From NCBI GenBank assembly GCA_963714015.1, contig OY970223.1, positions 32,001-96,000 on the forward strand: a stretch of 64,000 nt of DNA. The letters run 5' to 3'. The DNA comes from Vulcanimicrobiota bacterium (GTDB lineage: Bacteria > Vulcanimicrobiota > Vulcanimicrobiia > Vulcanimicrobiales > Vulcanimicrobiaceae). The notes under the pieces are model-generated. The model was not told where the DNA came from. It saw only the letters and a list, made by a program, of their open reading frames with translations, and searched no databases. Of the stretch, positions 39,151-57,226 are shown piece by piece. The first letter of the stretch is position 1. Every line of letters begins with the position of its first letter. The translations under genes and the position numbers were made by a program.

Positions 39151-39212
39151 GCGTCGTCTCGCCTTCAGGCGAACCTCATCCTAACTGGGGGCGTTTTGAT
39201 TTCACGCTAATT
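39151..39212 (+). repeat. Degenerate copy of the intergenic element
   Basis: GCGTCGTCTCGCCTTCAGGCGAACCTCATCCTAACT...ATTTCACGCTAATT aligns to GGCGTTGTCTCACCTTTTAGGNGAATTTCACCCTAACT. Confidence 0.6.
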
Positions 39213-40133
39213 GTGACTTAAGGCCATCATCGCGGGCGGCTGCTCATCTTCGCGAATCCGATCGAGATCGGAAATAAGGTCCGGTCCCGTTGGATCCCAT
39301 CCGAGCCGTTCTCTGGTCAAGGCGCTCGACGCCGGCAGATCCGCTGCGACAAGAGGCGCGAGCCACCCAAAATGCTCTGCCGCTTCTTTATCGGTAATGG
39401 ACTTCGCTGGGACACCGGTACGCCTGCCGATGGCTTCCGCGATGTCACGAAGTTTCACGCCTTCCTCGGCCACGGCGTGATAGCGTGTCCCGGCGTCTGC
39501 ATTTTTCTCCAACGCGAGGTCGGTAAAGATGCGCAACGTTTAAAACGTGTGCGGCCGGCCAGCGATTTGCGCCGTCACCTACAAAGGCAGAGACGCCTTT
39601 CTCTTTTGCCAACCCAATCAGCATCGAGATCAATCCATGTTTGAGCGGATTGTGCACCTGCGGAAGGCGTACGACCGAAACGCGTACGCCGTGAGCCGCA
39701 ACGGCGTCGGCTGCCTCTTCGGACGCATTGCGCGGGAATTGCGCACTGGACGCATGCGGATCGACTTCCGTTGCGCTTCGGCCCTGCGTCAACGTGCCGA
39801 TTCCAGAGGTGACTAAAAACGGACGATTCGAGCCCGCAGAGCTCCCGCGCCCATCGCCTCAATAGCGCGCCGATCGATCTCGCAATTTTCTTGAAACTTC
39901 GAAAACTCATGAATGAACGCGAGATGAATGACGCCGTCGGCTTTTGCAGCGCCGCTGCGCAAGCTTTCTACATCTTCAACCGAACCGCGATGCGCCTCAG
40001 CGCCGGCGGCTGCTAGCGCATCGACCGACGAATCAGAGCGCGCAAGTCCGATTACCTGGTGACCCGCGGCGATAAGTTCCGACGTGACCGGCACGCCGAT
40101 GAATCCGGACGCTCCGGTAATAAAAACACGCAT
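39207..40133 (-). pseudogene. NAD-dependent epimerase/dehydratase (extended SDR) split across three or more frames
   Basis: [13 protein letters not shown]... (39813-40133), ...VVRLPQVH...GDGANRWPAAHV (39445-39792), ...YHAVAEEGV...LGWDPTGP (39207-39536). Confidence 0.8.
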
Positions 40134-40152
40134 TGAAGATGCCTCCTGGTGG

Positions 40153-40206
40153 GGTGATGTCAGTTTCTGTCATCACCATGATACACCTGATGTCAACCAC
40201 TGTCAT
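40153..40206. promoter_or_regulatory. Putative TetR operator pair
   Basis: GGTGATG(T)CA-N5-TG(T)CATCACC imperfect palindrome plus second TGATGTCA-N4-CTGTCAT. Confidence 0.6.
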
Positions 40207-40220
40207 GACCTGCTATACTC

Positions 40221-40793
40221 GTGACTATGGGGAGATGGGAGCCGAATGCGCAAGGGCGCCTGATTGAGGCGGCGCTAGCACTCTATAGGGAGCGCGGGTT
40301 CGAGCAGACGACCGTTGCGGAAATCGCGAACCGGGCCGGACTCACCGAGCGCACATTTTTCCGGTACTTTGCGGACAAGCGGGAGGTGCTCTTTTTTGGA
40401 TCGGAGACGCTTCAAAGCGCTTTGATCGAAAGCCTCGAGCGAGCGCCTGCGGAGCTGCCGCCGATTGATGCCGTCGGCGTGGCGCTGCAAAGCATTTCGA
40501 CGTTTTTTGCAGATCGCCGCCCGCATTCATTGCGGCGCCAAGCGGTGATCGATGCAAATCCGGAGCTTCAAGAACGTGAGCGCAAAAAGCTCGCGTCGCT
40601 TGCTGTTGCGTTTGCAACCGCATTGCAGCAACGGGGCGCAAAAGCGTCAACCGCTACACTCGTTGCAGAAATGGGTGTCGCCGTTTTCAAGATTGCATTC
40701 GAGCGTTGGCTCAGCGATCCGGAAGAGCGCAACATCGCATACCATGTCGGCGAGTCGCTCGACGAACTGAAATCCGCAACCGCTGGACGCTAA
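40221..40793 (+). CDS. TetR family regulator
   Basis: MGRWEPNAQGRL..AAL.LY.ERGFEQTTVAEIA.RAGLTERTFFRYFADKREVLF. Confidence 0.92.
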   Translation: MTMGRWEPNAQGRLIEAALALYRERGFEQTTVAEIANRAGLTERTFFRYFADKREVLFFGSETLQSALIESLERAPAELPPIDAVGVALQSISTFFADRRPHSLRRQAVIDANPELQERERKKLASLAVAFATALQQRGAKASTATLVAEMGVAVFKIAFERWLSDPEERNIAYHVGESLDELKSATAGR

Positions 40794-40840
40794 GGTCGCT
40801 TTTCAAAGCCTTTCACTGTGTTCCTAAACTAAATCAAGCG

Positions 40841-41998
40841 TTATAAGACCTGGTAGAAGGCGAGCATCCCCGCGGCCATGTGGTCGGAATAGTGGCAATG
40901 GAAGAGCCAAATGCCGGGATTGTCGGGAACCATGTCGGCTTCGAGCATCTGCGCCGCGCCGATGTTGAGCACGTCAGTGCGGTGTCCTTGGAAGAGCACG
41001 GTATTCCCGTGCCAGTGCGGCGTGTGGAGGTTGAAACCATTGCCGAGGCTGATCACGTACCATCTAACGTGCTCCCCGCGGCGCATCACCATCTTCGGAC
41101 CCTCGCCATAGAGATAGCCGTTGATCGTGAATTTGAGGTTTCCGTCGGCGAAGCCGTGGCCCGTCAACGACACGCCGCCGCCGTCTTCGTCGAAGGCCAA
41201 CGTTTGGAGTTTGTCTTTCGATGTAAGATTCGGCGTGAATGTTCGCATGTTGCGATCGAGATACCAGCTCTGGTTCTCGTTGAACATCTCGAAATCCGCA
41301 ATGAACTCGCGGTCGACGTCTTTGGGAGTGCCGTCCGGACGCGCCATCCCCCGCCGGGAAATAATCATCGCGCCGACGAGGCCGGCATCGACGTCGCGCT
41401 GATCCTCCGTATGCGAGTGATAGAACCACACGACGGAACTCCCGTCTTCGGGCCCCGGACCGGCGCGTTCGGGCACTTGCCACGTGTAGGTGTAGATATG
41501 TCCTGGCGGAACCGCGCCGCCGATTTTGCTGGCGCCGCTCGAACCGTCGTCGTAGGCGCTGCCTTCATTCGCCTTCGTGTAAAAAACGCCGTGCGGATGA
41601 ACGCTGTACGGATGCGACCCGTTGTTTTTGAATACGACCTTGATGGTGTCGCCGACTTCGGCGTGGATGATCGGCCCAAGGATGCCGAGGTACTGCTGAT
41701 TAGCTGGGCGCGGTTTGAGGTGCTTGAACGTGCCGTCGGTGTACTCGCGATAAACGGCTTTCCAGTACTTGGCGCCGATTTCGTTGCGACTACGCACCGT
41801 ATACGCGTCGCCGATCTTCGTATAGGGCATGTTCATCATGGCGTCTTTGCCGAGGGGCGCGTAATTCCAGACGACTTCGTCGGCAGCGATGTAGTACGTC
41901 CGGACGTGGCCGCTTTGCGGCTTGGGTGCTGCGGCGAGCACGGCCGCTATGATAACGGCCAGGACCAAAAAGGGAAGAAAGAGGCTAATATAACGCAT
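40841..41998 (-). CDS. Secreted two-domain multicopper oxidase
   Basis: Signal peptide; HPHG, YHSH, HTPHWHG, HCHYSDHMAAGM copper ligands. Confidence 0.9.
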   Translation of the reverse strand: MRYISLFLPFLVLAVIIAAVLAAAPKPQSGHVRTYYIAADEVVWNYAPLGKDAMMNMPYTKIGDAYTVRSRNEIGAKYWKAVYREYTDGTFKHLKPRPANQQYLGILGPIIHAEVGDTIKVVFKNNGSHPYSVHPHGVFYTKANEGSAYDDGSSGASKIGGAVPPGHIYTYTWQVPERAGPGPEDGSSVVWFYHSHTEDQRDVDAGLVGAMIISRRGMARPDGTPKDVDREFIADFEMFNENQSWYLDRNMRTFTPNLTSKDKLQTLAFDEDGGGVSLTGHGFADGNLKFTINGYLYGEGPKMVMRRGEHVRWYVISLGNGFNLHTPHWHGNTVLFQGHRTDVLNIGAAQMLEADMVPDNPGIWLFHCHYSDHMAAGMLAFYQVL

Positions 41999-42377
41999 TT
42001 CGCACCTTTCACAGCGCGGCGGCGCCATGCTGTGGTTGGATTTAGCGTGTGCGGACGATAACCTCTGACAATAAACTCACGAAGCGCGGAAGCATAACGC
42101 TACCCGCAGCGACGTCGTCGCTGAGAGCGACCGTTGCCGTTTTCGCGGAGAAACAGCAGCCCAAAGCGCGATTCGGATTTTGCCGGCGTATAGCGATGCT
42201 TGGCGGTTTTAAGCAGAGATGAGTCGCGAGTTTTGCGGCAAGGCGGCGCCCGGCGTACCGGCGGCCAGGGCCGGGTACCTTAGTAGCACGAGGTAACTGC
42301 TATGAGATTCTTTCGTATTGTCGGATTAGTGCGAGCGCAGAGCGACGGTTCAAATGCCGACGTCGAGAAGATGCAGC

Positions 42378-43179
42378 ATGAACACTGGAACGCAAAATTC
42401 ACGCCCAATCGCCGGTGTCACCGGTGCTTCCAGCGGCATCGGACGCGCGCTTGCGGAGCAGTTCGCGAAAAACGGGTTCGATCTAGTCATCGCAGCAGAA
42501 GACGAAAACATCGACGCAGCAGCGGACGAGCTTCGGGCGCTGGGATGCAGCGTCTATCCGGTTCGGGCAGATCTTACGGAAGAAGCGGGCGTGGAAGAGT
42601 TTGCGGCCGCGCTGCGGCAGTACGGTCCGCCATATGCCGTGGCAATCAATGCGGGCATCGGCAGCAGCGGCCGATTCGCCGAGACGGAGCTGGAGCAAGA
42701 GTTACGTTTGGTGGATCTGAACTGCCGCTCCGTCGTGCATTTGGCAAAGCGCGTGGTGCAGATGATGAATGGCAGGGAAGGCCGCATCCTCGTGACCAGT
42801 TCCATAGCCTCACTCGCGCCGGGCCCCTACGAGGCCGTCTATTCCGCCTCCAAGGCCTTTGATTATTCATTTGCGCTTGCATTACGTCACGAGCTTCAAG
42901 AAACCGAAATCAGCGTAACGGCCCTCATGCCCGGTCCTACCGAAACAAATTTTTTCACGCGCGCGCACGCGGAGGATACAAAACTCGGGCAAGAGCCGAA
43001 AGACGATCCGCAGCTCGGTTGCCAAACAAGGCTATGAAGCCCTGATGTCGGGCAAGGACCACGTCATCGCCGGATCGATGAAGACGAAGATCCAGGGCGC
43101 GATTATGGGCGCGCTTCCCGACAAGGCGAGCGCCGCCATGCACGCGCAAGAATCGAAACCGGGATCGGCAAAAAAATGA
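42378..43179 (+). CDS. Short-chain dehydrogenase/reductase, frameshift near 43018
   Basis: TGASSGIG, NAG, YSASK, PGPTET; C-terminus VAKQGYEALMSGKDHVIAGS...* in next frame. Confidence 0.8.
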
Positions 43180-43950
43180 TGGAACGAAAAACATTCGTGG
43201 GCGTGGCCAGCGCTGCCTTAACGGCAGTCTTCAGTCTGGGACGGGCAGATGCCGCAAGTCCGGTCAGCGAGAAAGTCAAACGCAATCCGCAAACGGAGTA
43301 TCCGAAACCGCCATATCCGGAGCAGTCGTAGCCATGGCCCGGTCTTGCGAGCCGCATGACGCCTCGCCCCGATCACGGCGAACTCTCGTATCGCGGCAGC
43401 GGCAGGCTAACGGGCCGCAAAGCACTTATCACCGGCGGTGATTCCGGCATGGGCTCGCGCTGCGGCAGCCTGACGCGGCGGAAGTTCTGCAGTATGTCCG
43501 CTCCGCCGGACGCAGAGCCTTTGCACTGCCCGGCGATATTCGAAGCGAGTCGTTCTGCACGAACCTTGTGGATCGCGCCGCATAGCAGCTGGGCGGACTA
43601 CACATCGTCGTCAATTGCGCTGCGCGCCAGCAATCGCGCCAATCCATTGCCGATCTTACGACGGACGAGTTCGACTGGACGATGAAGACGAATCTGTATG
43701 CGATGTTCTGGCTAACCAAAGCGGCGCTCGAGCACATGGGTCCGGGTTCCGCGATCATCAATACTGCGTCGATTCAGGCCTACGATCCGTCGCCGAACCT
43801 GTTTCATTATTCAATGACCAAGGCCGCTATTGCGAATTTCACCAAAGCGATGGCCAAACAACTCGCATTAGCCGGGCGCGGAATTAGGATCAATGCGGTT
43901 GCTCCCGGCCCGATATGGACGCCGCTTCAAGTCAGTGGAGGACACCCTAC
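43179..43950 (+). pseudogene. YghA-like SDR pseudogene
   Basis: YPKPPYPEQS*PWPGL (in-frame stop), [26 protein letters not shown], internal deletion/frameshifts, YSMTK, NAVAPGPIWTPLQ then homology stops. Confidence 0.8.
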
Positions 43951-44021
43951 CAACCTTTATCAAGGCGGGAAATTCTCCAAACCACGGACTCGCAAAGCGA
44001 GCGCGACGCCGCGGACCCCTC

Positions 44022-44093
44022 GGTGTCTATACACGCAATTTCGCCCTGATTAGTACTTTTTAGGCAGCTCGAATGAGACCGCATTAGAACGCT
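44022..44093 (+). repeat. Very degenerate copy of the intergenic element
   Basis: CACGCAATTTCGCCCTGATTAG..TTTTT resembles CACGCATTTCACCCTAACTAG; one octamer ATTAGAAC. Confidence 0.35.
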
Positions 44094-44095
44094 GC

Positions 44096-44124
44096 TTGAC
44101 AAGGCATACCATGCCATGTATACT
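44096..44124 (+). promoter_or_regulatory. Near-consensus sigma70 promoter of PadR operon
   Basis: TTGACA-N17-TATACT. Confidence 0.75.
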
Positions 44125-44140
44125 GTGCCACACACACTAT

Positions 44141-44503
44141 ATGGTAACCACTACGGCCGTTTCTGCACCAGGGGAATCCGAACGCTTTGAGGCGCTGCGT
44201 CAAGAGCTGCGGCGGGGCTGCCTGGCGCTGGCCGTCCTGGCACAACTGCGCCGAGAGCATTACGGCTACACGTTGCGCAAGGCGCTCGACGATCTCGGTC
44301 TGGAGATCGACGAAGGCACCCTGTACCCGCTGCTGCGCCGACTCGAATCTCAGGGCCTACTCGAGAGCGAGTGGCGGGAGACCGACAAGCGCCGCAAGCG
44401 GTTCTACAAAATTTCATTGAGCGGTGAACGCGTGCTCACCATGCTCGAAGACGAATTCGCTCGCCTCAATGCGGCGCTTGCACGCATCATTCAGGAGGCT
44501 TGA
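44141..44503 (+). CDS. PadR family regulator
   Basis: QELRRG.L.LAVL..L....YGY.L...L....EGTLYPLLRRLE.QGLL.SEW...R.RFY. Confidence 0.92.
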   Translation: MVTTTAVSAPGESERFEALRQELRRGCLALAVLAQLRREHYGYTLRKALDDLGLEIDEGTLYPLLRRLESQGLLESEWRETDKRRKRFYKISLSGERVLTMLEDEFARLNAALARIIQEA

Positions 44504-45435
44504 GTACCGTGACCACGCTTGACCGTTATCTCGCCGCCGTGCAGCAGCATCTTCCCGAATCGCTCGACGATCGGCAGGGTATCGTGGACGAGCTCGCCGA
44601 CGCCATTCATTCCGATCTAGAGGATCGACAAGCGCTACTCGGACGGACGCTTACCGATGACGAGGTCTCGCATTTCATCAAAGGCTTCGGCCATCCGCGA
44701 TCGGTTGCGGCGCGTTATGCAAAGCAGCATGGGCTGGTCGATCGTGAAATCTTCCCTTTTTATGTCGACGTCTTGACGAAAATTCTCTCGTTTGCCATTC
44801 CAGCCGAACTTCTGATTTTCACGGCAATCGCCGTTGCTACGCGTGACATGGCGTGGTTCTGGCAAGGCTTCTCAACGGCGTGGCAATCGCTGCTTCTAAT
44901 CTCGGCGATCGTAACGATCCTCTTCGCGGTCTTCGAGCGCCTTCCTCAATACGAGCACCGGCTCGGCATGCTGGGCTGCGATTGGGACCCGCAGCGTCTT
45001 CCCGCATCCTATTCAGCACATCCGTCCAACGCGCGGGCAGGCGGGTTTGCCGCATTCTTCTTCAACGCAATCGCACTGCTGCTGCTGCTTCAGATTCCGT
45101 CGTTCGGAGTCTCCTGGCTCGCGTTCGTAATGACGCCATCATGGCATCCCCTGTACGTTTTCGCGATCATCGCGACGGGCGCGACGGCGCTTACCGGTTT
45201 GCTGATCCTTGCGCTGCCGAGGGTCGCCCCTGTACGAGATTGGGCGGCCATTGCAGTCAACGCCCTCCTTATCGTCGGATGCGCTATCGCGCTGCACGGC
45301 GTATGGACGACAAGCAGCATCGCGGTCGTCGTCACGCTGGTTGCCGCAATCGCAATACTCGCGTTCTACGGTGCGGCGAGTTTTCGGAGCGTCGCCACGC
45401 CGGCGTGGAACCAAAGGCGCCAACCAGACCTCTAG
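44500..45435 (+). CDS. PadR-associated membrane protein (HAAS-like N-terminus)
   Basis: LDRYLAAV..HLP....IVDEL...I...FGHP..VAARY then multiple TMs; overlaps PadR stop. Confidence 0.75.
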   Translation: MSTVTTLDRYLAAVQQHLPESLDDRQGIVDELADAIHSDLEDRQALLGRTLTDDEVSHFIKGFGHPRSVAARYAKQHGLVDREIFPFYVDVLTKILSFAIPAELLIFTAIAVATRDMAWFWQGFSTAWQSLLLISAIVTILFAVFERLPQYEHRLGMLGCDWDPQRLPASYSAHPSNARAGGFAAFFFNAIALLLLLQIPSFGVSWLAFVMTPSWHPLYVFAIIATGATALTGLLILALPRVAPVRDWAAIAVNALLIVGCAIALHGVWTTSSIAVVVTLVAAIAILAFYGAASFRSVATPAWNQRRQPDL

Positions 45436-45494
45436 AAACAGCGGCAAGGGAGCGTCGACGAGTTAAGCTGCGCCTTTGCGAACGCGTCGTCCGG

Positions 45495-45983
45495 CTACTT
45501 AAGTGCGTCGCGCAACGCGCGTCTCAGATCACCCATGCCTGGATAAACGAAGTTATCGATCTTCAACCCTGAGGAAGTATGAACCACTATAACCCGCACC
45601 ATGGTGCTGCCGTTACCGCCCGAAAGCCGCACGCGCACCTGAACCGCGCTCGTTCCACGATTGGAAGAGCTGCCGATCGCGTAAGAAGCCGGCTCGGCCT
45701 GCGCTCCGCTGAAAGGATCGAAATCGAGCATTTGCGCCTGTTCTTGACGTTCTTTGCTGACGAGTTTCTCGAGCGAAGCATAGAGCGACGGCGTTAAGTA
45801 AGCGCGTGCGCCGGAAATGTTTGTCCAATCTCCATGCGTGGCTAAATACCACGTGTAAAAGGCATTGACGACGCGAACCGCTCCGGAAGTTTGGGCGTAC
45901 GCGATGCGGCCTCCAAAAACGGCAATCGCGATCAACACGAAAGCGGTGAAGAGCGGGTGAATTCGAACGCGCATTTGCTTCAA
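45495..45983 (-). CDS. Secreted DUF3828-like protein
   Basis: Signal peptide; VNAFYTWY, YLTPSL, LDFDPF..AQ, LKIDN. Confidence 0.65.
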   Translation of the reverse strand: MKQMRVRIHPLFTAFVLIAIAVFGGRIAYAQTSGAVRVVNAFYTWYLATHGDWTNISGARAYLTPSLYASLEKLVSKERQEQAQMLDFDPFSGAQAEPASYAIGSSSNRGTSAVQVRVRLSGGNGSTMVRVIVVHTSSGLKIDNFVYPGMGDLRRALRDALK

Positions 45984-46162
45984 CGATAGGCGCCTAAATC
46001 GGTCACGGCAAGGGCCACTTGCACTACGTCGGCGACACGCACGGAACGTTACTCAGGACGCCGCGCGGCCGTTGTAGCGTCCGTGATGTTTATACGGTAC
46101 TCCGAGCTGACTCATGAACGCCTCATAGCGCGTCCACATTCTAGACGGGCATACCCCGCGGT

Positions 46163-48094: not shown

Positions 48095-48222
48095 TGAGAC
48101 TACTTCCCTTAACGCACGGTTTTTCGTCAGTTAGGCTAGGCAGCACTAAAAGGGACGTAGTCTCATCTTTTAGGCGCATTTCACACGAACTAGCAGTCTT
48201 GGCGTGGATTTCACCCTAACGA
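48095..48222 (+). repeat. Intergenic element copy with internal 16-bp inverted repeat
   Basis: GACGTAGTCTCATCTTTTAGGCGC, boxes at 48178 and 48208; TGAGACTACTTCCCTT/AAGGGACGTAGTCTCA. Confidence 0.75.
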
Positions 48223-48301
48223 CCGGCGCCCCACCCCGAGGACCTTTGGCCCATGTCAGCCGGCGCGATGAAAGTTCAAACGCCGACGCGAAGGCTACGT
48301 C

Positions 48302-49816: not shown

Positions 49817-49842
49817 AACCGTAACCAGTAGGCAATCGAAGC

Positions 49843-49913
49843 GCTGGAATGCCGGAACGCTAGAACGCTAAAACGGCGTTGTCTCACGTTTAGCGCTATT
49901 TCACTTTAACAGC
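49843..49913 (+). repeat. Intergenic element copy (4 octamers + core + one box)
   Basis: GCTGGAAT GCCGGAAC GCTAGAAC GCTAAAAC GGCGTTGTCTCAC GTTTAGCGCT ATTTCACTTTAAC. Confidence 0.85.
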
Positions 49914-49934
49914 CATTCTCTCCCTACCAACCTT

Positions 49935-50490: not shown

Positions 50491-50707
50491 GCGCCGAAAT
50501 GCCACAGCACCGCTAGACACGTTCTGATGTAGCGCGACCGACAGATGGTGCAGGATTTGCTTTGGTGCGGTCGAGCGATACGAGCGCACGCGAGAGACTG
50601 GATAAGAAGGGCCGGCCAAAAACGGCCGAGCCTTCAAAAAGCCCCGTGTTGCCAGATAGTTTTGGGTGTCTTGCGCCTCTATCTTGACATTTATAGAATT
50701 ACGAGGT

Positions 50708-50786
50708 CCTAGAACGGCGTTCTCTCACCTTTTAGGAGAATTTCACTCTAACTAGCCGTTTTTGCACGCATTTCACCCTAACTGCG
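50708..50786 (+). repeat. Intergenic element copy (1 octamer + core + two boxes)
   Basis: CCTAGAAC GGCGTTCTCTCAC CTTTTAGG; boxes at 50740 and 50770. Confidence 0.85.
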
Positions 50787-50849
50787 TTTTTTTCACGTTG
50801 CCAGTCAAGAAAATAGGGCTCCCGAACCCGCCACGTCGAAAACCCTTAA

Positions 50850-52528
50850 ATGCGGCCAAGGCATATCGCTGCCGTTTTCTGCGCGGCCATTGCGCTGATT
50901 TTTGTCCTCGCCATAGGGGCGAGTCTTCCCCAGGCGAGCGCCGGTATAAGACTGGGGATTTCACAGCGGGTCGCGCCCGATCATTTCCGCATTTCCCAGC
51001 TTCCACGGGGTAGCACCTCGGGCGCACGAGTAGGCGACGTTCTCGATACGCGGGCGCTCACCGTCGAACAGCGTTCGCGCTATTGGAACGGAGAATCGCG
51101 CGCCGGTGCGACGGTTGCGGTCACGCTGTTCCGCAACGGTAAGCCCGTGACCGTGTACGCCACGGTGCCGGCGCGGGATCCGCAGACGCAGGTCGCAGAC
51201 GACATCTGGTTTGGACTGTTGTGTTTCGGGGTCGTCGCAGGCTTGCTGCTGATGTCCCGCGGCCGCGGCAAGGCGTCGTTCACCGCAGGCCTGATGCTGC
51301 TCACGCTCGGCATAACATTAGCGCCGATCGGTGCATGGATTACGCCGGTTTGGCTAAGCGTCGCGCTATTTGAACTGGAGTCTGGTGCCAACCGGCGTTT
51401 GCGGTTTGCGCGTTCGTACTCGGCATGTTGCTATTGCGCGAGAGCGTCTCGCGTCCTGTTCGGGCATTGCTCATTATTGCGGCGTCTATTGCGATCGGGA
51501 GCGAAACCTTCGTCTGGTCTTTCGACTACGGCCTGTGGATGTTCACCGGCCACACCGAAGGCGGTCAACTGGTTTATCCGTACGCGGCCACTGCGTGGAT
51601 ATCGGTGACCATTCTGACGTTTGCGTTAGCGGCGGCTCGAACGCGAGGAAGTGATGCGGCAGCAGTCCGTACGCTCTTCGTCGCCACACTCATCGGGCTG
51701 GGCGCTATTGCTTGTACGTATTTGGCCGAGTTCCATTTGGTGCCCACGCCGCCGCGGCTGGTGTCGGCCGTATGTCAGCTCGTACTGTTCGTCGGCTACT
51801 TTTATGCCTTTTTTGCGCGCCGCCTGGTTGCACTGGATTTTGTGATCAGCCGCGCGGCGGTGTTTACCATTCTCGCGGGTGTCATTGCCGGCGTACTCGC
51901 CCTTGTTGAGAAATTCGTCGAATCATTCGCGCTCGGGCGTGAATCGATTTTCGTGGTCGAACTCGGTGCGACACTGCTGGTGGCGCTGTCGTTCCGGTGG
52001 CTGGAACGCCGCATCAGCGTCGCCGTGGAGCAGGTGTTTTACCGCGACAAATTGAGGGCCGCCGAGGCGCTGGGCGCTTTGACCGACGATTTCCCCTTTC
52101 ATCGCGATCGGACCGCGCTGGCCAATCATCTCGTCCGCGAAGTACTCCGCCAGCTGCGCGTACCTTCAGCGGTTTTGTATTTCGCGAAAGGGCACGAATA
52201 CGTCGCTGAAGGCGCTGCGGGCGCCGACCTCTTATCCTGCCCGCCCGTTGCGGATACCGATCCCGCTATTCTTCGTTTGCGATCCAAGCATAGCCCGATA
52301 GACTGCCATGATTTTCAAACACAATTGGGATCGAGCGGGTACGCGTTTCCACTCGACGTGTTGGGGCGTGCAATCGGCTGTCTATACGTTGCAGCGCGCG
52401 CAAATGGAGAAGGGCTAGATCCGGACGAACGCACATTGCTTACGCGCCTTGCGCATGAAGCCGCAACGGCATTACTTTGGATGACGGAGCACAAAACAGC
52501 CGCAGCAGATGAGGCTTACAGCACTTAG
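50850..52528 (+). CDS. PDZ-like + multi-TM + GAF-like membrane protein (paralog 5), frameshifted near 51400
   Basis: SGARVGDVL in first ORF; YAFFARRLVALDFVISRAAVF, VEQVFYRDK, NGEGLDPDE in second ORF. Confidence 0.75.
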
Positions 52529-52541
52529 AGCACGCAGCGAA

Positions 52542-52570
52542 GAAAAGCCCTCGGTTATTGCGGGCTTTTC
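52542..52570. terminator. Bidirectional intrinsic terminator-like hairpin
   Basis: GAAAAGCCC-N11-GGGCTTTTC. Confidence 0.7.
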
Positions 52571-52584
52571 AATTTCGCGCAAGA

Positions 52585-52682
52585 TGAGAACGCTAAAACG
52601 CCAGAACGTCAGAATGGCGTTGTCTCACGTTTTAAGCGAATTTCTCCGTAACTAGCGATTTTTGCACGCATTTAACCCAACT
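52585..52682 (+). repeat. Intergenic element copy (about 4 octamers + core + two boxes)
   Basis: GCTAAAAC GCCAGAAC GTCAGAAT GGCGTTGTCTCAC; boxes at 52640 and 52670. Confidence 0.88.
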
Positions 52683-52818
52683 CAACGGTGAAGTGCCTCT
52701 GACCACATAACCGGTTAATGGAGTTTCTCGGTTAGTAGCGCGGTTCCAGGAACGCGGCGTGCGCGCGGCCTACGCCTAGGGGTGGAATTAGGCCGTGCGT
52801 CTAAGATATTACGTTGCC

Positions 52819-54588
52819 ATGAAGACCGAGTCGCCTTCAATCGGCACTTGGAAACGATGCCTCGTAGCATGCGTTGTAATCGGTCTTGCCGCCGTGCTCG
52901 CGTCCGCCTACATTCAACGCGTGCCATTCCCCGATCTCGGTTTTGACCTGCGCGTCGACGCAGCATCACGGAATGTTTTTGTTTCTTCCGTTGACCGGGC
53001 CACCCCGGCCTGGCGTGCTGGCTTGCGTCCCGGCGACGCGCTTGCCGTTAAAGACTTGGATATATCGCAACGCATAATTTTGTCAGGCCCGACACAGCCG
53101 TCCGTAGATCCTTTGCGTGTTGACCTGCCGGTTTTACGCAGCGGCAGTACGCACAGAATTTCGTTCGCCGCCCGTGCCGACGCGGCTACATTAGAGACGC
53201 TGTTCGCCAATTACTTCGTCCTCATCGGCGACCTGCTAATGTTAGCCGTTGCGCTCCTCATCGGCACGCGCAAACCGGAAAACCGCGACGTACGGGATAT
53301 CTGTCTCGTGCTGCTGACCTACGCAGTCGGAAACGGTTTGTACAACCTGAGCCTTAACTGGGCTCCGCTTCTGATTCTGATGAACATCGCGAATTTGGGT
53401 CCGATTCTCTCTGCGGTTTTATTTGGTCTCTTCGCGATGCGTTTCGTCACCAACGTTAAGGCACGCACGCTTGCGACAGGCATCGGCAGCGCGATTTTCC
53501 TTGCGGCCAGCGTGTTGACAGTGCTCTTCCTGATGGGAGCAGCGACGGCCCGTCCCGATCCGTTCTGGCTCTCGCGATGGCCGTGGACGTCTTACTTATT
53601 CGCAGAAAGCTCTCACTATTTCTTTGCACGTCTCTTCGCGCTGATCTGCGGCATTTACGCGATCGCCGCCTCTCGCGGGGCGCAGCGGCAACGTATCGTT
53701 TGGGCGACGGCCGCGGTAGCAGTCCTGTATGGAACAGCGGTGATCGTCCAACCTCTTGTTCGGCTTGGCGTTATACCCGTGTCATTTGACGAACCGATCG
53801 TCGACGTCGGCGTCTTTCTTTTCCCAATCGGGCTTGCGTACGCGGTGCTGAAACGACGAATACTTGACATCGGATTCGTCATCAACCGCGCCGCGGTGTT
53901 TTCCGGCGTGTCGATCATCGTCGTGGGCATCTTCGTACTGGTGGAGTGGCTGCTATCGGAATGGTTCGGAAGCCTGAGCCACACGGCAAATCTGGCTATA
54001 GGCGCTGCTTTGGCACTCTTCTTAGGTTTTTCGGTGCGAGCGATTCACCAACACGTGGACCGCACTCTCGACGCGGTCTTTTTCCGAAAGCGGCATGAAG
54101 ACGAGAAAGCCATCCGAACGTTTGCGCATGAGGCCTCGTACATAACGGACCTTGGAACGCTCATCGCGCGCGCGAAGCAGACGCTCGAAGCTCATGCCGA
54201 CGCCGCGTTCGCCAACCTAGCGTTAGACGACGGCCTTGGGCTTTACGGCGACGTGAGCGAAAACGATCCCGCGATCGTCGCCTTGCAAGCATGGCGCCAG
54301 GTGCTCGATCTTCATACCGTGCAAACCCGGTTGCAAGGCGAATTCGCCTATCCGATGATCGCACGTGGCCGTCTAGTGGGTGCGCTTATCGTCGGGCCGA
54401 AGCGCACCGGTGAGTCGTACGCGCCAGATGAATCCGACGCGATCGCGCAGCTTGCACACGGGGTCGGTGGCGCGCTGGACATCCTGACGCTCAATGCGGG
54501 CGTTTCGTTAGAAACCTTGTCCGAACAACTGCGCGACTTTCGCGATACCATGGTGGCCGAGCTTCGCGCAATGCGTGCTCCGCTGTAA
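52819..54588 (+). CDS. PDZ-like + multi-TM + GAF-like membrane protein (paralog 6)
   Basis: VDRATPAWRAGLRPGD; YAVLKRRILDIGFVINRAAVF; HQHVDRTLDAVFFRKR; GPKRTGESYAPDE. Confidence 0.82.
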   Translation: MKTESPSIGTWKRCLVACVVIGLAAVLASAYIQRVPFPDLGFDLRVDAASRNVFVSSVDRATPAWRAGLRPGDALAVKDLDISQRIILSGPTQPSVDPLRVDLPVLRSGSTHRISFAARADAATLETLFANYFVLIGDLLMLAVALLIGTRKPENRDVRDICLVLLTYAVGNGLYNLSLNWAPLLILMNIANLGPILSAVLFGLFAMRFVTNVKARTLATGIGSAIFLAASVLTVLFLMGAATARPDPFWLSRWPWTSYLFAESSHYFFARLFALICGIYAIAASRGAQRQRIVWATAAVAVLYGTAVIVQPLVRLGVIPVSFDEPIVDVGVFLFPIGLAYAVLKRRILDIGFVINRAAVFSGVSIIVVGIFVLVEWLLSEWFGSLSHTANLAIGAALALFLGFSVRAIHQHVDRTLDAVFFRKRHEDEKAIRTFAHEASYITDLGTLIARAKQTLEAHADAAFANLALDDGLGLYGDVSENDPAIVALQAWRQVLDLHTVQTRLQGEFAYPMIARGRLVGALIVGPKRTGESYAPDESDAIAQLAHGVGGALDILTLNAGVSLETLSEQLRDFRDTMVAELRAMRAPL

Positions 54589-54589
54589 A

Positions 54590-54620
54590 AAAAGCGCAGT
54601 CGAAGAGTCGCCGCGCTTTT
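54590..54620. terminator. Terminator-like hairpin
   Basis: AAAAGCGC-N15-GCGCTTTT right after paralog 6 stop. Confidence 0.6.
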
Positions 54621-54624
54621 AATT

Positions 54625-54710
54625 CGAAACGCTAGAGCGTTAGAACGTCAAAACGCTAAAACGTCAGAACGCTAAAACGGTCAAAACGGCGTTATCTCAC
54701 CTTTTAGGCG
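54625..54710 (+). repeat. Intergenic element copy (7-8 octamers + core, boxes missing)
   Basis: GCTAGAGC GTTAGAAC GTCAAAAC GCTAAAAC GTCAGAAC GCTAAAAC G GTCAAAAC GGCGTTATCTCAC CTTTTAGGCG. Confidence 0.88.
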
Positions 54711-54761
54711 TCCGGCACTTCGTGTCCGCCTGATCGAAGCATTGTGTGGCGCGACTGCGTA

Positions 54762-54789
54762 AAAAAGCCCTGCAAATGCGGGGCTTTTT
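54762..54789. terminator. Bidirectional terminator-like hairpin
   Basis: AAAAAGCCCTGCA-AA-TGCGGGGCTTTTT. Confidence 0.7.
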
Positions 54790-54811
54790 GGTCTTAATCT
54801 TTTGGATCTTC

Positions 54812-54928
54812 ACTAGAACATTAGAACCTAAAACGTCAAAATGCTAGAACGCTAGAACGTCGTTGTCTCACCTCTTACGGGAATTTCACCCTAACTAGCG
54901 CTTTTTGCATAAATTTCGTCCTAACTGC
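54812..54928 (+). repeat. Intergenic element copy (6 octamers + core + two boxes)
   Basis: ACTAGAAC ATTAGAAC CTAAAAC GTCAAAAT GCTAGAAC GCTAGAAC GTCGTTGTCTCAC; boxes at 54883 and 54913. Confidence 0.88.
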
Positions 54929-55210
54929 GCGCGAGGCCGGTTGGTCCTGCGCCATGCGGGATGCTGGCACGAATGAAAGGTCCATTGTCGGCGCGTGTGC
55001 TTGTGGTACGCCGGCCAGCCGCCGGGAGCGTCGATGCACCGCGGATTGTTCGGCGTCGTCGGATACGTGCGCGTTTTGGCACCCGGAAAGTCGTTTATCT
55101 TGGGAACAAACACTCGGTTTATACGCGTCAGTGGAATGGCACCGAAAAGTTCCTAAACGCTTCGGATTGAAAACGAAAAGTGCACGTTTGAATGTGAACG
55201 TGTTCGCGCC

Positions 55211-55711
55211 TCAAACCCTGCCTGCGAGTAACTCATCCAGCTGCGCGAACTGTTCGGGCAGGCCTTCCGCCGAACCGGCGAGGGCTTCGTCGAGGGCCGC
55301 TTCTGTGGGGTAAAGTTCGTGTAGAATGACCAGCGTCTTGCCGGCATTTTCTTCGAACGTCACAGTGGTCACGGCGCCCTGATCGCTTTCTTCGTTCGTC
55401 CAGACGAGACGCTTGTTCGGCGTCACTTCTCGGTACGTGCCGAAGAACGCCATCGGTTGATCGAAGGCCGGATGGCGGAACACGAGGCGATACGCGCCCC
55501 CGGTGCGCACATCCATGTCGCACGAGACCAGCGACATGCCTGCCGACTTCGGAACCCACCAAATCTTGAACAATTCGGATTTGCTCCACGCTTCGAAGAC
55601 GATGTGCGCCCGGGCATTGAACGTTCGCGTCACGACGAGTTCGCGGTCGGACTTGCGTTCCACCACTGTGCGGTTGATGGTGGCGGGACTAGTTTCTTTT
55701 GCTTCAGGCAT
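55211..55711 (-). CDS. SRPBCC/AHSA1 family protein
   Basis: RELVVTRTFNA...VFEAW...WW.P...CDMDVRTGGAYR...GTYREV.P..RLVWT. Confidence 0.9.
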   Translation of the reverse strand: MPEAKETSPATINRTVVERKSDRELVVTRTFNARAHIVFEAWSKSELFKIWWVPKSAGMSLVSCDMDVRTGGAYRLVFRHPAFDQPMAFFGTYREVTPNKRLVWTNEESDQGAVTTVTFEENAGKTLVILHELYPTEAALDEALAGSAEGLPEQFAQLDELLAGRV

Positions 55712-56055
55712 CTGACTTCTCCTTACATTTCAAGTGCTCGACAATCTTGTCCAGCGCGTCGAAGCGTGCGCTCCAGAGCTGGCGGTGCCGCTCGATCCAG
55801 GCGGCCTCTTCTTCCAGCGCGCGCATGCCAAGTCTGCAGGTTCTGACGCGCCCGGTCTTTTCAGTAGTGACGAGCGCTGCCCGCTCCAGCACGGCAACAT
55901 GCTTCTTCATGCCCGTGAGGGTCATCCGGAACTTTCCGGCGAGGTCCGTAATCGAGGCGTCGGAGTGGGCGAAGCTGCTCCAGCACGCCGCGCCGAGTCG
56001 CGTCCGAGAGCGCGGCGAATGAAGCGTCGAGGCGGGGTTCGTTATACTGAACCAT
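55704..56055 (-). CDS. ArsR/SmtB family regulator, frameshift near 55970
   Basis: LDASFAALSDATRRGVLEQL then MTLTGMKKHVAVLERAALVTTEKTGRVRTC in other frame. Confidence 0.82.
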
Positions 56056-56068
56056 ATAGTTCAGTATA
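56043..56068. promoter_or_regulatory. ArsR operator overlapping start codon
   Basis: Perfect TATACTGAAC-N6-GTTCAGTATA inverted repeat. Confidence 0.75.
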
Positions 56069-56367
56069 TAGCAGATCGAATTGCCGCGCAAGAGGCAAGG
56101 TGCTGGCCTACTAAGGGCCGGCGACGAGCCGCTCGGTCAGCAGAAGGCTATCCCCGGCTCGAATTAGCGCTCCCTCACCGCTCGCGTGTTCGGGGCTCAC
56201 GGACAAAATTCGGTGCAGTATAGGCACGTTTCGTGCGCTTACGGTAGCCCTCGAGTATGCGATTTAGCACGCTGGGCAACGCCGGAATACTTGCCAATGC
56301 GCTTGACGACAACGCCGCGGTCCTGCAAGAACTGGATATGAGCGCAGACGCGCACGGATCCCTAAGC

Positions 56368-56401
56368 GCTGGAACGCCCTGTAAACACAGGGCGTTTCAG
56401 C
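56368..56401. other. Long hairpin upstream of element copy
   Basis: GCTGGAACGCCCTGT-N4-ACAGGGCGTTTCAGC. Confidence 0.55.
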
Positions 56402-56432
56402 ATCATCGTATGCGAATGAATTACATTTCTAT

Positions 56433-56552
56433 GTTAAGACGAATTTCGTAACTCGCGATTTTCCGTTAGTTAGGTGAGTCCGCACTAGAACGGTCAAAAA
56501 CGTCAGAACGTCAGAATGTTAAAACGCTAGAACGGCGTTGTCTCTTAACTGC
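56433..56552 (+). repeat. Intergenic element copy (box remnant + AGTTAGG + 6 octamers + truncated core)
   Basis: GAATTTCGTAACT..AGTTAGGTGAG..ACTAGAAC GGTCAAAAAC GTCAGAAC GTCAGAAT GTTAAAAC GCTAGAAC GGCGTTGTCTC TTAACTGC. Confidence 0.85.
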
Positions 56553-56555
56553 AAA

Positions 56556-57116
56556 CTACGGCGCAAGCGACTCCTGCGCCTCGAGGCGCCAAGCCTCGAA
56601 GGCGCTCTCGAATTGAACGCGCTTTCTGAACGGAGCATTGTACTTGCGGACATCGAATGGCCGCCTGTTGAGGGCATCGAAAACGAGGTATTCGAAATCG
56701 GCCCATCGCGGATTACTCGGATGGCGTTCACGCCATGCGTATGCGAGCGGACCGAGTCTCTTCCATACGTCCGGGGACGTCATGATAATTGGAGCGAACA
56801 AATCACGATCTGCGATGCCGTAATTTATCAGCCTTGCTGCCGTTTGATAAAACCCACCGTACATCAGCACTCGGTGATCTATGCCTTCGCGCAGCGTCTT
56901 CTCCAGCAACGCAGCATCGCGAAAGTCGCACGTTTCGACATACTCGCGGGCGGCCACCATCTCTGGAGAGTTCAGGCGCCCCATCAAATCTACGTATGTC
57001 CCGATTTGGTACGTCAGGCGCAAATGTTTGAGTTGCACGATCGCAGCGACGGCTCCGACCAACACGACGAGCGCGCCGGCAATAGCGGCAAGCGCACTGA
57101 TTTCATCCCATCCCAT
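56556..57116 (-). CDS. N-terminal TM hypothetical protein (DUF4760-like)
   Basis: WDEISALAAIAGALVVLVGAVAAIVQL...AREYV...WADFEYL. Confidence 0.65.
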   Translation of the reverse strand: MGWDEISALAAIAGALVVLVGAVAAIVQLKHLRLTYQIGTYVDLMGRLNSPEMVAAREYVETCDFRDAALLEKTLREGIDHRVLMYGGFYQTAARLINYGIADRDLFAPIIMTSPDVWKRLGPLAYAWRERHPSNPRWADFEYLVFDALNRRPFDVRKYNAPFRKRVQFESAFEAWRLEAQESLAP

Positions 57117-57200
57117 GGGTGAACTATTTTGTCGAGGTGCATCCTTCCGCCTGGGAAGCTAAGAAGAAGCCTCGCGATGAGTCGCCAGGCTCTTGATTTG

Positions 57201-57226
57201 ACTAGAACGTCAGAACGTCAGAACGG
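57201..57226 (+). repeat. Octamer array only (3 units)
   Basis: ACTAGAAC GTCAGAAC GTCAGAAC GG. Confidence 0.75.

Follow-up and report, generated by a model that had tools for sequence, protein, structure and literature searches.

In staphylococci, SCC elements insert at the 3′ end of rlmH (orfX), and recombinase-less pseudo-SCC units occur in composite islands; the units are moved by large serine recombinases, which some of them carry. Staphylococcal genomic islands near rpsR and guaA are single large units with their own integrases, and the available portions of the literature on them describe no cassette array or repeated ssb terminus. Here we analyse dispersed repeats in a 64-kb window (the whole stretch of DNA studied) of a Vulcanimicrobiota genome. 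These composite elements are the junctions of non-autonomous cassettes that were inserted serially, in one orientation, and exactly at the stop codon of ssb. The insertions have split the ancestral operon rpsF-ssb-rpsR-rplI at ssb. The original prediction had pointed to the ssb-rpsR interval, and rightly. The ancestral adjacency, with rpsR no more than 1.5 kb after ssb, is found in 3 of 30 genomes (G091, G093, and G136).

The element consists, in order, of one or more octamers, a TGTCTCAC core, and a pair of boxes at 30-bp spacing. This End A, made of the core GGCGTTGTCTCAC, an 11-nt gap, and two 14-bp boxes, lies on the ssb-distal side of each cassette. About a third of the cassettes carry an End B on the ssb-proximal side. 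It combines a TGTCTCAC arm and a half-box, both inverted, with boxes that run parallel to those of End A; 30 of 100 End A copies are preceded by an End B arm. The geometry was read from 100 distinct copies, drawn from all the loci retrieved. The gap between the core and box 1 is 11 nt in 92 of them, and the box spacing in the 91 two-box copies is 30 bp in 77 and 29–31 bp in all. Octamer units are 8 or 9 nt long and form tandem arrays of 2–10 in 51 of the 100 copies, one array in G076 having eight identical units. The terminal 11–20 bp are true inverted repeats that start with TG (reading TGCTGTCTCAC and CGTTGTCTCAC, and about 20 bp long in G256), while the full boxes run in the same direction at both ends and are not inverted. 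The variable half of the boxes is uniform inside one genome and different between genomes.

Features of the window are collected in Table 1. Ten copies had originally been listed; eight are real, 57201 is a remnant that keeps nothing but octamers, and 44022 is doubtful, as its parts are misordered and it has no profile match at E ≤ 10. The 30-bp spacing claimed for the four copies with two clear boxes was exact at every one of them. Decay grows with distance from ssb, from the full copies at 50708–54926 to the decayed copy at 39150. The module at 48104 has the layout of End B in relatives. In the copy at 56441, an internal deletion of End A joins core GGCGTTGTCTC to box-2 tail TTAACTGC, and the box-less copy with its core at 54688 is followed by ~100 nt of orphan sequence with a hairpin and a T-run. 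Tandem Repeats Finder placed period-8 arrays at 49855, 52587, 54644, 54813, 56499, and 57204; that at 54644 has 5.5 copies by the program and about 8 units by eye. The octamers at 57201 are a fossil ssb terminus, left when a second type of element inserted between the octamers and the ssb stop codon, touching the stop; this insert carries a GAF-membrane paralog and two small ORFs.

Table 1. Elements and neighbouring genes, in window coordinates.
Feature	Position	Strand	Details
rpsR	464..616	-	PF01084 match; genome 32464-32616; ancestrally follows ssb, here ~60 kb off
Oldest, decayed End A	39150..39212	+	Core-like CGCGTCGTCTCGC; box-like 14-mers at 39173 and 39199, spacing 26 bp; nhmmer E=8.1
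Doubtful copy	44022..44070	+	Box-like 14-mer (3 mismatches) before, not after, TTTTTAGG: wrong part order
End B-like module	48104..48144	+	Box tail CCCTTAACGCACG, T-run, inverted half-box CAGTTAGG, then degenerate GTGAGACA-type arm
One octamer and End A	48145..48226	+	Diverged core 48154-48166; boxes 48178, 48208; nhmmer E=1.8e-17
Four octamers (49843-49874) and End A	49843..49911	+	Core 49875; box 1 at 49898, box 2 lost; nhmmer E=5.4e-12
One octamer and full End A	50708..50783	+	Core 50716; boxes 50740, 50770; nhmmer E=8.5e-21
About four octamers (52585-52615) and full End A	52585..52682	+	Core 52616; boxes 52640, 52670; nhmmer E=5.2e-19
About eight octamers (54625-54687) and core, no boxes	54625..54708	+	Core 54688, then CTTTTAGG; nhmmer E=4.5e-4
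Six octamers (54812-54858) and full End A	54812..54926	+	Core 54859; boxes 54883, 54913; nhmmer E=1.3e-19
End B-like module (56441-56483), six octamers (56484-56533), deleted End A	56441..56551	+	nhmmer E=0.13
DUF4760 cassette	56544..57214	-	Gene 56556-57116, minus strand; Pfam PF15956 E=1.1e-8
Three octamers only	57201..57225	+	Read directly; Tandem Repeats Finder
Second-type insert, 3.5 kb	57229..60728		13-bp inverted ends GGGGGAACCAAAA at 57229-57241 and 60717-60729; Pfam
ssb	60729..61157	-	Pfam SSB E=2.3e-32; last codons CCT TTC TAG (Pro-Phe-stop), the insertion point
rpsF	61245..61583	-	Pfam Ribosomal_S6 E=2.2e-27; operon partner upstream of ssb

An nhmmer profile running from the core to box 2 matches the genome only at 71151–88544, which is window 39151–56544, always on the + strand, and the rest of the 3.56 Mb genome has no match at E ≤ 10. 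The earlier statements that all copies lie on one strand and that none occur in the first 39 kb are therefore correct. Across the whole genome, the core GGCGTTGTCTCAC is found at one mismatch or fewer only at window positions 49875, 50716, 52616, 54688, and 54859, with a two-mismatch copy at 56534, and the clustering of copies is far beyond chance. The bare 13-mer at up to three mismatches gives 16 matches against 7.6 expected, a number reached by 1 of 100 shuffles and weak on its own.

Beyond this genome, the element matched 39 of 151 genomes, G021 and G023 (both unpublished) being included in these counts, and 24 of 78 genera, all in one Eremiobacterota family, that of the source genome. Sampling across the phylum gave matches in 17 of 71 genomes of the same family and in none of the 79 that represented 20 other families. 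Titles of the matching records name Eremiobacterota/Vulcanimicrobiota, including Baltobacteraceae. By a hand tally of the 39 matching genomes, the match shares a contig with ssb, lies no more than 15 kb from it, and converges with it in 25; three are exceptions and 11 are not assessable, so that 25 of 28 assessable genomes have the element just downstream of ssb and pointing at it. The exceptions are G089 (elements and ssb on different contigs), G116 (only a weak match, on another contig), and G168 (element on the rpsF side). The same ssb layout appears in eight further records and 14 metagenome contigs.

When reverse-complemented, the octamer is the final 8 nt of ssb (in some cases the final 9 nt), which code for Pro-Phe-stop; this identity pinpoints the insertion site. 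In relatives, the SSB protein ends ...EIPF-stop, and the tandem copies of the last 8–9 nt start at the stop codon. Among 187 octamer units, from 86 arrays anchored by End A, positions 1, 3, 4, and 6 hold only 22 deviating letters out of 748, as against 225 of 748 non-modal letters at the synonymous positions 2, 5, 7, and 8. A stop codon (TAG, TGA, or TAA) closes 163 of the 187 units, and TGG stands at the octamer end in 3 where 29.9 would be expected. When the resident ssb end was compared with the first fossil, the two were identical in 7 of 23 contexts and different in 16, and 28 of the 32 differences fell at synonymous positions. These synonymous differences fit octamers imported from other hosts better than duplication on the spot. 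The octamers of G022 carry CCT, a codon that is rare but is G022's own.

Gene-content breakpoints between relatives coincide with the element. The DUF4760 cassette (gene plus End A) is 94.8–95.1% identical in nucleotides (blastn) to sequences in three other genera (G111, G104, and G122), while the flanking rpsF/ssb are 67–80% identical. In the alignment, homology stops at box 2 of the cassette's own End A on one side and at the next octamer array on the other, and End A is the only end that this cassette has. With G001, of the same genus, the rpsR-proximal 23 kb is common and the ssb-proximal part is not; the sole ssb-proximal gene in common has an octamer-plus-core remnant of End A in front of it. 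The cargo in general consists of ordinary accessory genes, with 0–3 or more per cassette in either orientation.

On this evidence, the elements are probably att-type junctions, and the non-autonomous cassettes that they delimit were probably integrated at the ssb stop by an enzyme acting in trans. The boxes would serve a recombinase encoded elsewhere as arm-type binding sites, the TGTCTCAC arms would be its core sites, and strand exchange would take place inside or beside the octamer. The incoming, putatively circular cassette would supply its own copy of the ssb end, which would become the working end, and the previous one would be pushed downstream as a fossil. Since each incoming end would displace the previous one, new cassettes would enter beside ssb, and the old ones would drift toward rpsR and decay there. 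The original prediction, that these are protein-bound recombination junctions of an undescribed gene-accretion system whose recombinase acts in trans or has been lost, is supported: copies are not scattered through the genome, breakpoints lie at the element, and no described repeat or RNA family was matched, with 0 Rfam matches at gathering score and the genome's own IS21 ends unrelated in sequence. Of the candidates it had offered, att-like sites are favoured over TGT-type transposon ends because the octamer, as had been missed, is the ssb terminus; res-like sites found no support.

As had been stated earlier for the window, no dedicated recombinase was found among its 63 ORFs, nor among 416 ORFs of relatives. 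The genome's single large serine recombinase does not track the element: it has relatives in 18 of 151 genomes, 6 of which carry the element, compared with 39 of 151 overall. The boxes of the genome's own IS21 ends are unrelated in sequence, though alike in general layout (subterminal and repeated).

The main alternative is that the units are two-ended non-autonomous transposons, comparable to mobile insertion cassettes or gene-stripped Tn7/IS21-type elements, mobilized by a target-specific DDE transposase in trans. A staggered cut of 8–9 nt at the ssb end would duplicate the octamer, and cycles of insertion and excision would leave the arrays as footprints. The arrays themselves, including the eight identical units in G076, speak for such a process, as do the match of the G022 octamers to the local CCT codon and the subterminal boxes, which recall the layout of the genome's IS21-like ends if not their sequence. 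The 8- or 9-nt unit and the TG-starting inverted repeats also fit a transposase and count against the att-type reading. The distance of 15 nt between the two 8-bp arms at single-octamer End B-octamer-End A junctions also counts against that reading, given that known tyrosine recombinases have a narrower overlap of 6–8 nt. Conservative recombination alone, moreover, does not yield arrays of 2–10 octamers; for these, slippage or repeated action of a duplicating enzyme has to be invoked as well. Neither circular junctions nor excision products were observed. Against transposition, however, the full boxes are direct between the ends, an End B arm is present in front of under a third of the End A copies, and End A is the sole end of the DUF4760 cassette, whose transfer was recent. 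The predominantly synonymous differences between resident end and adjacent copy are unexpected for duplication followed by neutral decay, and the 416 ORFs scanned include no transposase located between a pair of ends. We therefore regard the transposon explanation as unlikely and favour a conservative site-specific recombinase over a transposase.

Homologous recombination after DNA uptake could instead swap the cassettes with no dedicated enzyme, the ssb end and End A serving as homology anchors. Both are conserved enough for this role, and no recombinase was found. Yet this leaves unexplained the exact last 8–9 nt of ssb at every junction, the rigid 11-nt and 30-bp geometry, the co-variation of boxes within a genome, and the single orientation, and we judge it very improbable. 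Less credible still, and already largely refuted, is a regulatory module (a promoter plus an operator for a tandem-repeat-binding repressor) copied along with a paralogous gene family. Several copies do lie upstream of + strand genes, in one membrane-protein family with a GAF-like C-terminus, and operators of ribbon-helix-helix repressors resemble tandem 8-bp repeats closed by an inverted one. However, about 20 paralogs elsewhere in the genome have no element, in G007 the element separates the ends of two convergent genes, the genes at its flanks are unrelated and face either way, a sigma-70-like promoter was found in no copy, and the octamer is the ssb terminus. Least plausible of all, with next to no chance in our view, is a structured RNA (leader or small RNA) or a terminator/insulator, with this strand as the one transcribed: it could draw on the inverted repeat GTGAGACA...TGTCTCAC with a short T-run behind it, on some G-T type changes, and on the hairpin of the orphan segment after 54688, but Rfam gave nothing, the End A consensus folds at −1.64 kcal/mol with a covariation term of +0.41 and 1 of 7 pairs compensated, and the loop lengthens with the number of octamers, from 8 to about 80 nt.

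Returning to att-type junctions, the locus can be set beside the described systems. Like Tn7-like and IS21-type ends, it has TGT-starting inverted termini with repeated, binding-site-like subterminal boxes, orientation-specific insertion just past a conserved gene, and remnants that pile up in tandem; unlike them, its full boxes are direct between the two ends rather than inverted, its repeat is 8–9 bp, and its units hold no TnsB, IstA, or IstB genes. The boxes of the genome's own IS21-like copies differ from those of the element in sequence. With lambda-type att sites of heterobivalent tyrosine integrases, it has in common inverted core-type arms that flank a short stretch also present in the bacterial site, multiple arm-type repeats on each side that set direction, and an element-supplied replacement 3′ end of the target gene. 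It differs in having no integrase beside the site and in the wider separation of its arms, and lambda-type sites are not known to contain the shared stretch in tandem arrays. SCC elements are alike in inserting with a single orientation at the extreme end of a conserved housekeeping gene, in leaving the gene terminus in direct repeats at each junction, and in the tandem accretion of units, some without a recombinase; here, in contrast, no array has a large serine recombinase, and the repeated boxes have no SCC counterpart. Compared with integrons and CALINs, this locus has no integrase gene beside the entry point, its site is a TGTCTCAC core with two direct 14-bp boxes rather than a folded imperfect palindrome, the entry is the stop codon of an essential gene, and a cassette may hold 0–3 or more genes in either orientation. 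As in integrons and CALINs, however, one-direction site arrays separate promoter-independent cargo, cassettes lack a recombinase of their own, one fixed entry point places the newest cassette nearest, and one site per cassette suffices, as in the DUF4760 cassette. Though integron-like or SCC-like in arrangement, the locus belongs to neither family, and the repeats suggest that one family of uncultured soil bacteria has a gene-capture system not described before.

Direct reading of the copies shows the full form of the element to be a run of 8-bp units (octamers) followed by GGCGTTGTCTCAC, C/G-TTTTAGG and two 14-bp boxes (ATTTCACCCTAACT). This is the order of octamers, core and two boxes given in the original prediction, and its 30-bp box spacing is exact at 48178/48208, 50740/50770, 52640/52670 and 54883/54913. 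The window represents bases 32001–96000 of one 3.56 Mb contig with a G+C content of 60.9%, and the region is not set apart from its surroundings by composition, and contains no tRNA genes. The period-8 arrays in the window were called by Tandem Repeats Finder. An nhmmer profile of the element, built on five window copies and two from relatives, matched only within genome positions 71151–88544, with every match on the + strand and no other at E ≤ 10 in the 3.56 Mb genome. Genome-wide scatter, which the original prediction had named as evidence against recombination junctions, was therefore not seen, the matches being confined to one 17-kb locus. Its list of copies needs some revision at the distal side: the copy at 39151 is on the + strand as listed but decayed (E = 8.1), and the one at 44022 was missed by the profile at E ≤ 10 and is doubtful.

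Positions of operon genes, End B-like modules and GAF-membrane paralogs (window coordinates)
Feature	Position	Strand	Remark
rpsR	464-616		
GAF-membrane paralog	36831-38351		
GAF-membrane paralog	46163-48028		
End B-like module	48104-48144		read in sequence
GAF-membrane paralog	48302-49816		
GAF-membrane paralog	51425-52528		
GAF-membrane paralog	52795-54588		
End B-like module	56441-56483		read in sequence
GAF-membrane paralog	57771-59300		
ssb	60729-61157	-	just beyond last copy
rpsF	61245-61583	-	just beyond last copy

Across all loci, the unit made of the core and the two boxes (End A) has a core-to-box-1 gap of 11 nt in 92 of 100 distinct copies, and a box spacing of 30 bp in 77/91 and of 29–31 bp in 91/91. 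One octamer precedes End A in 44/100 copies, 2–10 in 51/100, and none in 5/100; the pool behind the 100-copy and octamer counts includes the unpublished genomes G021 and G023, and the End A of G023 (locus L030) is among the listed copies. The box has an invariant first half, ATTTCAC, and a second half that takes forms such as CCTAACT, AGTATCT, ATTGAAT and others across genomes while being uniform within any one genome, as would be expected for a site co-evolving with a putative binding protein. A second, ssb-proximal module (End B) stands before the octamers in 30/100 copies, and is found immediately after ssb or a few octamers later in 18/56 ssb contexts. It consists of same-direction boxes, then an inverted half-box that pairs with the nearest box as an inverted repeat, and then GTGAGACA, the inverse of End A’s TGTCTCAC; at junctions with inverted core-type arms, the arm spacing is 15 nt. 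Read from the ssb side, a two-ended unit consists of an octamer, TGCTGTCTCAC..., cargo, ...GTGAGACAACG and an octamer, and its termini are true inverted repeats of 11–20 bp, with the full boxes all direct. At one locus in a relative (L028, G080:C2:868342-868495), two End A copies stand head to head over four octamers and form a large palindrome, and such a pair may be the origin of the End B-type inverted arm.

A box-less End A core is separated from the octamer array that follows it by ~100 nt of orphan sequence (window 54709–54811), which ends in a hairpin and T-run and may represent either a very small cassette remnant or a small RNA. A reading of End A itself as RNA was rejected, as Rfam gave 0 matches (for the whole window at gathering score), and the consensus fold is weak (−1.64 kcal/mol) without supporting covariation. 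A scan of 47900–57400 gave 2 promoter-like sites vs. 3.8 expected, none of them inside elements, and 17 terminator-like sites vs. 12.7 expected; the hairpins seen by eye ahead of several octamer arrays were mostly uncalled in the terminator scan.

The octamer itself can be traced to ssb. In most bacteria, rpsR is found directly after ssb, yet rpsR lies at the other edge of this window (see table), which places the two genes ~60 kb apart; across 30 genomes, rpsR follows ssb within 1.5 kb in only three, all with the most distant SSB. With dnaA at 712 kb, the locus is also away from the origin. In relatives, the SSB C-terminus is ...EIPF-stop, with the codons ATC CCG TTC TAA/TAG/TGA, and directly after the stop are tandem CGTTCTAA, CGTTCTGA, CGTTTTAG and similar units. 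Because the originally described octamer, GYYARAAC, is the exact reverse complement of this ssb-terminal unit, the octamers are copies of the ssb terminus, comprising its final 8 nt or in some cases 9. Among 187 units from 86 End A-anchored arrays, taken at ≤2 mismatches to the degenerate pattern with the diverged tail trimmed, 22/748 letters deviate at positions 1, 3, 4, and 6, as opposed to 225/748 non-modal letters at positions 2, 5, 7, and 8, which are the Pro and Phe wobble bases and the two variable stop bases. This ascertainment cannot produce the between-position contrast, with which a more biased count made earlier also agrees. In addition, a stop codon ends 163/187 units, TGG was observed 3 times vs. 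29.9 expected under independent variation of the two purines, and the octamer copies of one relative (G022) share that genome’s unusual CCT proline codon. From the sequences compared, the coding pattern, the stop retention, and the shared CCT codon argue that the match between octamer and ssb is more than resemblance. The working ssb end is the same as the adjacent fossil octamer in just 7/23 contexts, and 28/32 differences between the two are at synonymous positions; the G021 flank and End A are among these contexts and among the listings of End A and ssb termini.

Other sequences also enter at the ssb stop. A second insert type (window 57229–60728, 3.5 kb) has 13-bp inverted ends, GGGGGAACCAAAA, and abuts the ssb stop codon; its far side keeps the old terminus TT-CCG-TTC-TGA, and ssb now ends in ATT-CCT-TTC-TAG. 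TTAAGTTAACTTAG-like sequence, similar to this insert, follows the ssb stop in two further genomes (G153 and G149). A third end type (…GAGTAATTCTGTAACTGTCAAGATAGA…) starts right at the ssb stop at L089, L090, and L087 (in G145, G112, and G164), and thus at least three sequence families have one common insertion point. A short recurring element with a TTGTCATCCTGAGCG start and a GTCGAAGGAC end, found after octamers at L083 (G007), L045 (G133), L056 (G148), L062, L066, and L067, looks like a small dispersed repeat.

The element was identified with a sequence-only model (R1) in 39/151 genomes and 24/78 genera of the host family; the 39/151 tally includes the unpublished G021 and G023, and the 127/151 tally includes the unpublished G021, G125, G030, G165, G134, G010, and G077. 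In a phylum-wide sample, it was present in 17/71 genomes of the host family vs. 0/79 from 20 other families, and a full copy was absent from two same-genus genomes. Public records with the exact End A pattern carry Eremiobacterota/Vulcanimicrobiota titles, including Baltobacteraceae, Candidatus Rubrimentiphilum, and Candidatus Lustribacter; two short contigs with the pattern have other taxon labels, and viral contigs gave 0 matches. By hand tally, the element is on the ssb contig, <15 kb away, and directed at the ssb 3′ end in 25/39 genomes, with 11/39 not assessable (fragmented or ssb not found) and 3/39 exceptions (G089, G116, G168). G116 has a weak match alone, on a contig other than that of ssb, and in G168 the element is on the rpsF side, yet End B is right after its ssb. 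In G089, ssb and element are on separate contigs, and at L047 (G089:C2:594501-614500) two End A copies were seen away from ssb, among McrBC, reverse transcriptase, and RecQ-like helicase genes, which would mean that the array, wholly or partly, has moved or that a second site exists. The ssb-element layout is repeated in 8 further records and 14 metagenome contigs, and 36 metagenome stretches have the chromosomal context unchanged and no recombinase. In multi-copy genomes, the copies are clustered on a single strand (7 in G076, 7 in a fen-derived record, and 9 in G256), and one-strand copies were found in this genome, G076, G104, G123, the fen_1528 record, and G256.

The genes between the window copies are ordinary accessory genes by Pfam, such as TetR and PadR regulators, dehydrogenases, a multicopper oxidase, and a DUF4760 protein. 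Six paralogs of a multi-pass membrane protein with a weak C-terminal GAF-like domain are also found in the window, with 19–37% identity among them. Because ~20 further members of this family around the genome are without the element, it is not merely an upstream region copied with the paralog; the family is found again as cargo in relatives. Several ORF pairs overlap or abut like single genes broken by a frameshift, namely a GAF-membrane paralog (50850–52528), a short-chain dehydrogenase (43356–44053), and a NAD-binding protein (39207–40133). In relatives, the cargo includes ECF sigma/anti-sigma pairs, beta-lactamase-fold and S13 peptidases, TonB receptors, ABC transporters, KatG with Fur, and McrBC, Fic, RES, and Abi genes.

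Movement of a cassette, the cargo unit between junctions, is seen for the DUF4760 gene and its flanks (56544–57214, 671 bp), which are 94.8–95.1% identical to copies in three genomes of other genera (G111, G104, G122), while the neighbouring rpsF and ssb are merely 67–80% identical. The homology begins in End A box 2 and ends at the next octamer array, and beyond the octamers, upstream, the genomes are unrelated. This cassette has End A and no End B, and its rank varies between arrays. In comparison with G001, from the same genus, the rpsR-proximal 23 kb are common and the ssb-proximal part is not; in G001, an octamer and TGCTGTCTCAC with deleted boxes stand before the only ssb-proximal gene in common (window 48260–49816, 82.5% identical). 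Full copies are close to ssb and the most decayed copy is farthest off, a gradient that fits entry at the ssb end. The read data comprised contigs of a single soil study (3 runs, with 0.33 of the sampled words present in the best run); against the window these are short low-depth pieces, in which no circular junctions were seen. One contig from run X2 (151 nt, depth 2.2) would skip one cassette, running from the octamers at 52591 straight into the End A at 54854, with 25 nt on one side and 12 mismatches on the longer side, and may come from a related strain; three joints from run X3 have 21–22 nt on one side.

Given these observations, we favour conservative site-specific exchange over transposition. 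On both arms the full boxes are in direct orientation, an arrangement that is possible for arm-type sites, whereas transposase sites are inverted, and one-ended cassettes move. It seems unlikely that a duplicating transposase moves the units, even though tandem octamer arrays, a unit of 8 or 9 nt, and TG-initiated inverted termini would all be simpler under such an enzyme. An on-the-spot duplication would be identical at the start and then decay at random, while here the ssb end differs from the adjacent fossil in most contexts and mainly at synonymous sites, and the insert at 57229–60728 parts a fossil terminus from a different working one while its own 13-bp ends are identical. Under conservative exchange, cassettes from other hosts would bring octamers once used as real gene ends, leading to such synonymous-site differences.

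As originally stated, the window has no recombinase: none was found by Pfam among its 63 ORFs, and none recurs in or beside arrays among 416 ORFs from relatives, where the mobile genes are just scattered IS3, IS21, IS4, TnpB, group II intron, and reverse transcriptases. PF00589 matched neither of these sets; its matches in the genome are at 1.21, 2.40, 2.56, 3.09, and 3.43 Mb, and those of PF00239 at 2.70 and 3.26 Mb only. The large serine recombinase at 2.70 Mb was rejected as the enzyme, with relatives in 18/151 genomes and the element in only 6 of these 18, as was a frameshifted tyrosine recombinase beside nrdJ, with relatives in only 6/151 genomes. At genome 2556945–2558376 (L111), a frameshifted tyrosine recombinase and a Cro/C1-type regulator are found right after the 3′ end of the class II ribonucleotide reductase gene, probably another integrated element with a gene end as its site. 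Xer/dif was dismissed because the core does not resemble the dif-like site next to xer. This palindrome, ATGCGACATAA-TAACAG-TTTTATCGCAT, is at genome 2402506, directly upstream of the sole clear xer-type recombinase gene and at the GC-skew maximum (~2.40 Mb), and the dif search found no GTGAGACA..TGTCTCAC pair elsewhere. A match to known IS ends would have counted against the original prediction, and the genome’s three IS21-like copies, with ends of TGTTAGCGCC and two AAAATTGACCCACC repeats, are unrelated to End A and were discarded as its source. Matches to rve across the genome are of IS3 and IS21 type and lie away from the element, with none between any end pair; an rve-containing ORF at 3.336 Mb is amid defence-type genes. 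Among G098, G076, and G133, the ORFs closest to ssb show no homology to one another. A 5′–3′ exonuclease gene, in the interval at five loci (G164, G133, L062, L066, L067) but at 2.70 Mb in this genome, was taken as synteny, and ECF sigma/anti-sigma pairs, of varying position and orientation in seven arrays, as cargo.

We tentatively propose that one Eremiobacterota family may have its own integron-like capture platform, with the ssb stop as fixed entry, spare SSB C-terminal codons on each cassette, and joints held in coding shape by selection whenever they terminate an essential gene. Its recombinase would be encoded off-array and be of a kind not yet tied to cassette capture, possibly a new family. 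If true, bacteria would have a second means, of independent origin, of accumulating captured genes at a single address, beside integrons and staphylococcal cassette chromosomes (SCC), in what is, to our knowledge, a phylum without any genetics. Because bacteria cannot do without the C-terminal tip of SSB, its final codons hardly vary among them, and the insertion site is thus unable to mutate away. The fossil octamers are a legible record of past insertions, and the cargo (sigma/anti-sigma, beta-lactamase-fold, transporters, and defence genes) suggests that the locus is, in these abundant soil bacteria, one of the main places where accessory genes turn over. A site of 80–130 bp with strict geometry is a direct handle on the enzyme search, and an enzyme acting in trans on small sites and a universal target could be a possible integration tool.

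In the literature searched, we found no account of insertion at the ssb stop or of such mobile elements in Eremiobacterota. REP/BIME or MITE sequences have many dispersed copies, unlike the one locus recovered here by profile search of the whole genome. Xer-dependent IMEX use a dif-like site and insert at dif near the terminus, whereas the core is unlike the genome’s dif-like palindrome. The IS21 family has istA and istB between ends, which are absent here, and the ends are unrelated to the genome’s IS21 copies. Tn7-like elements contain a TnsB-type transposase (rve), TnsA/TnsC, and a target selector, and have transposase-binding repeats inverted between left and right ends and a 5-bp target duplication; in contrast, no rve is found here between ends, the full boxes of the two ends share one direction, and the repeat unit is 8–9 bp. 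In lambda-type att sites, arm-type repeats flank inverted core-type sites around a target-matching segment, and such a layout may be read at 30/100 junctions, with arms 15 nt apart; no candidate for a cognate lambda-type integrase was found among the G000 (this genome) candidates and the ORFs of the window and relatives. Functionally, the locus resembles an integron array or an SCC island, yet departs from both in their defining features. Integrons have an integrase gene (tyrosine recombinase) beside the primary insertion site, with none here in the window or in relatives’ arrays, and their attC sites form hairpins from imperfect inverted repeats in which the 7-bp core and inverse-core motifs are conserved, as opposed to the core, two direct boxes, and weak fold of End A. 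Still, a one-way array of cassettes without their own recombinase is present in both. SCC elements have Ccr-type large serine recombinase genes, of which none was found in the arrays here. The rpsR neighbourhood in staphylococci is described in one published account as a genomic-island hot spot. As in SCC, insertion is at a conserved gene’s 3′ end and direct repeats hold its terminus, with ssb here in place of rlmH.
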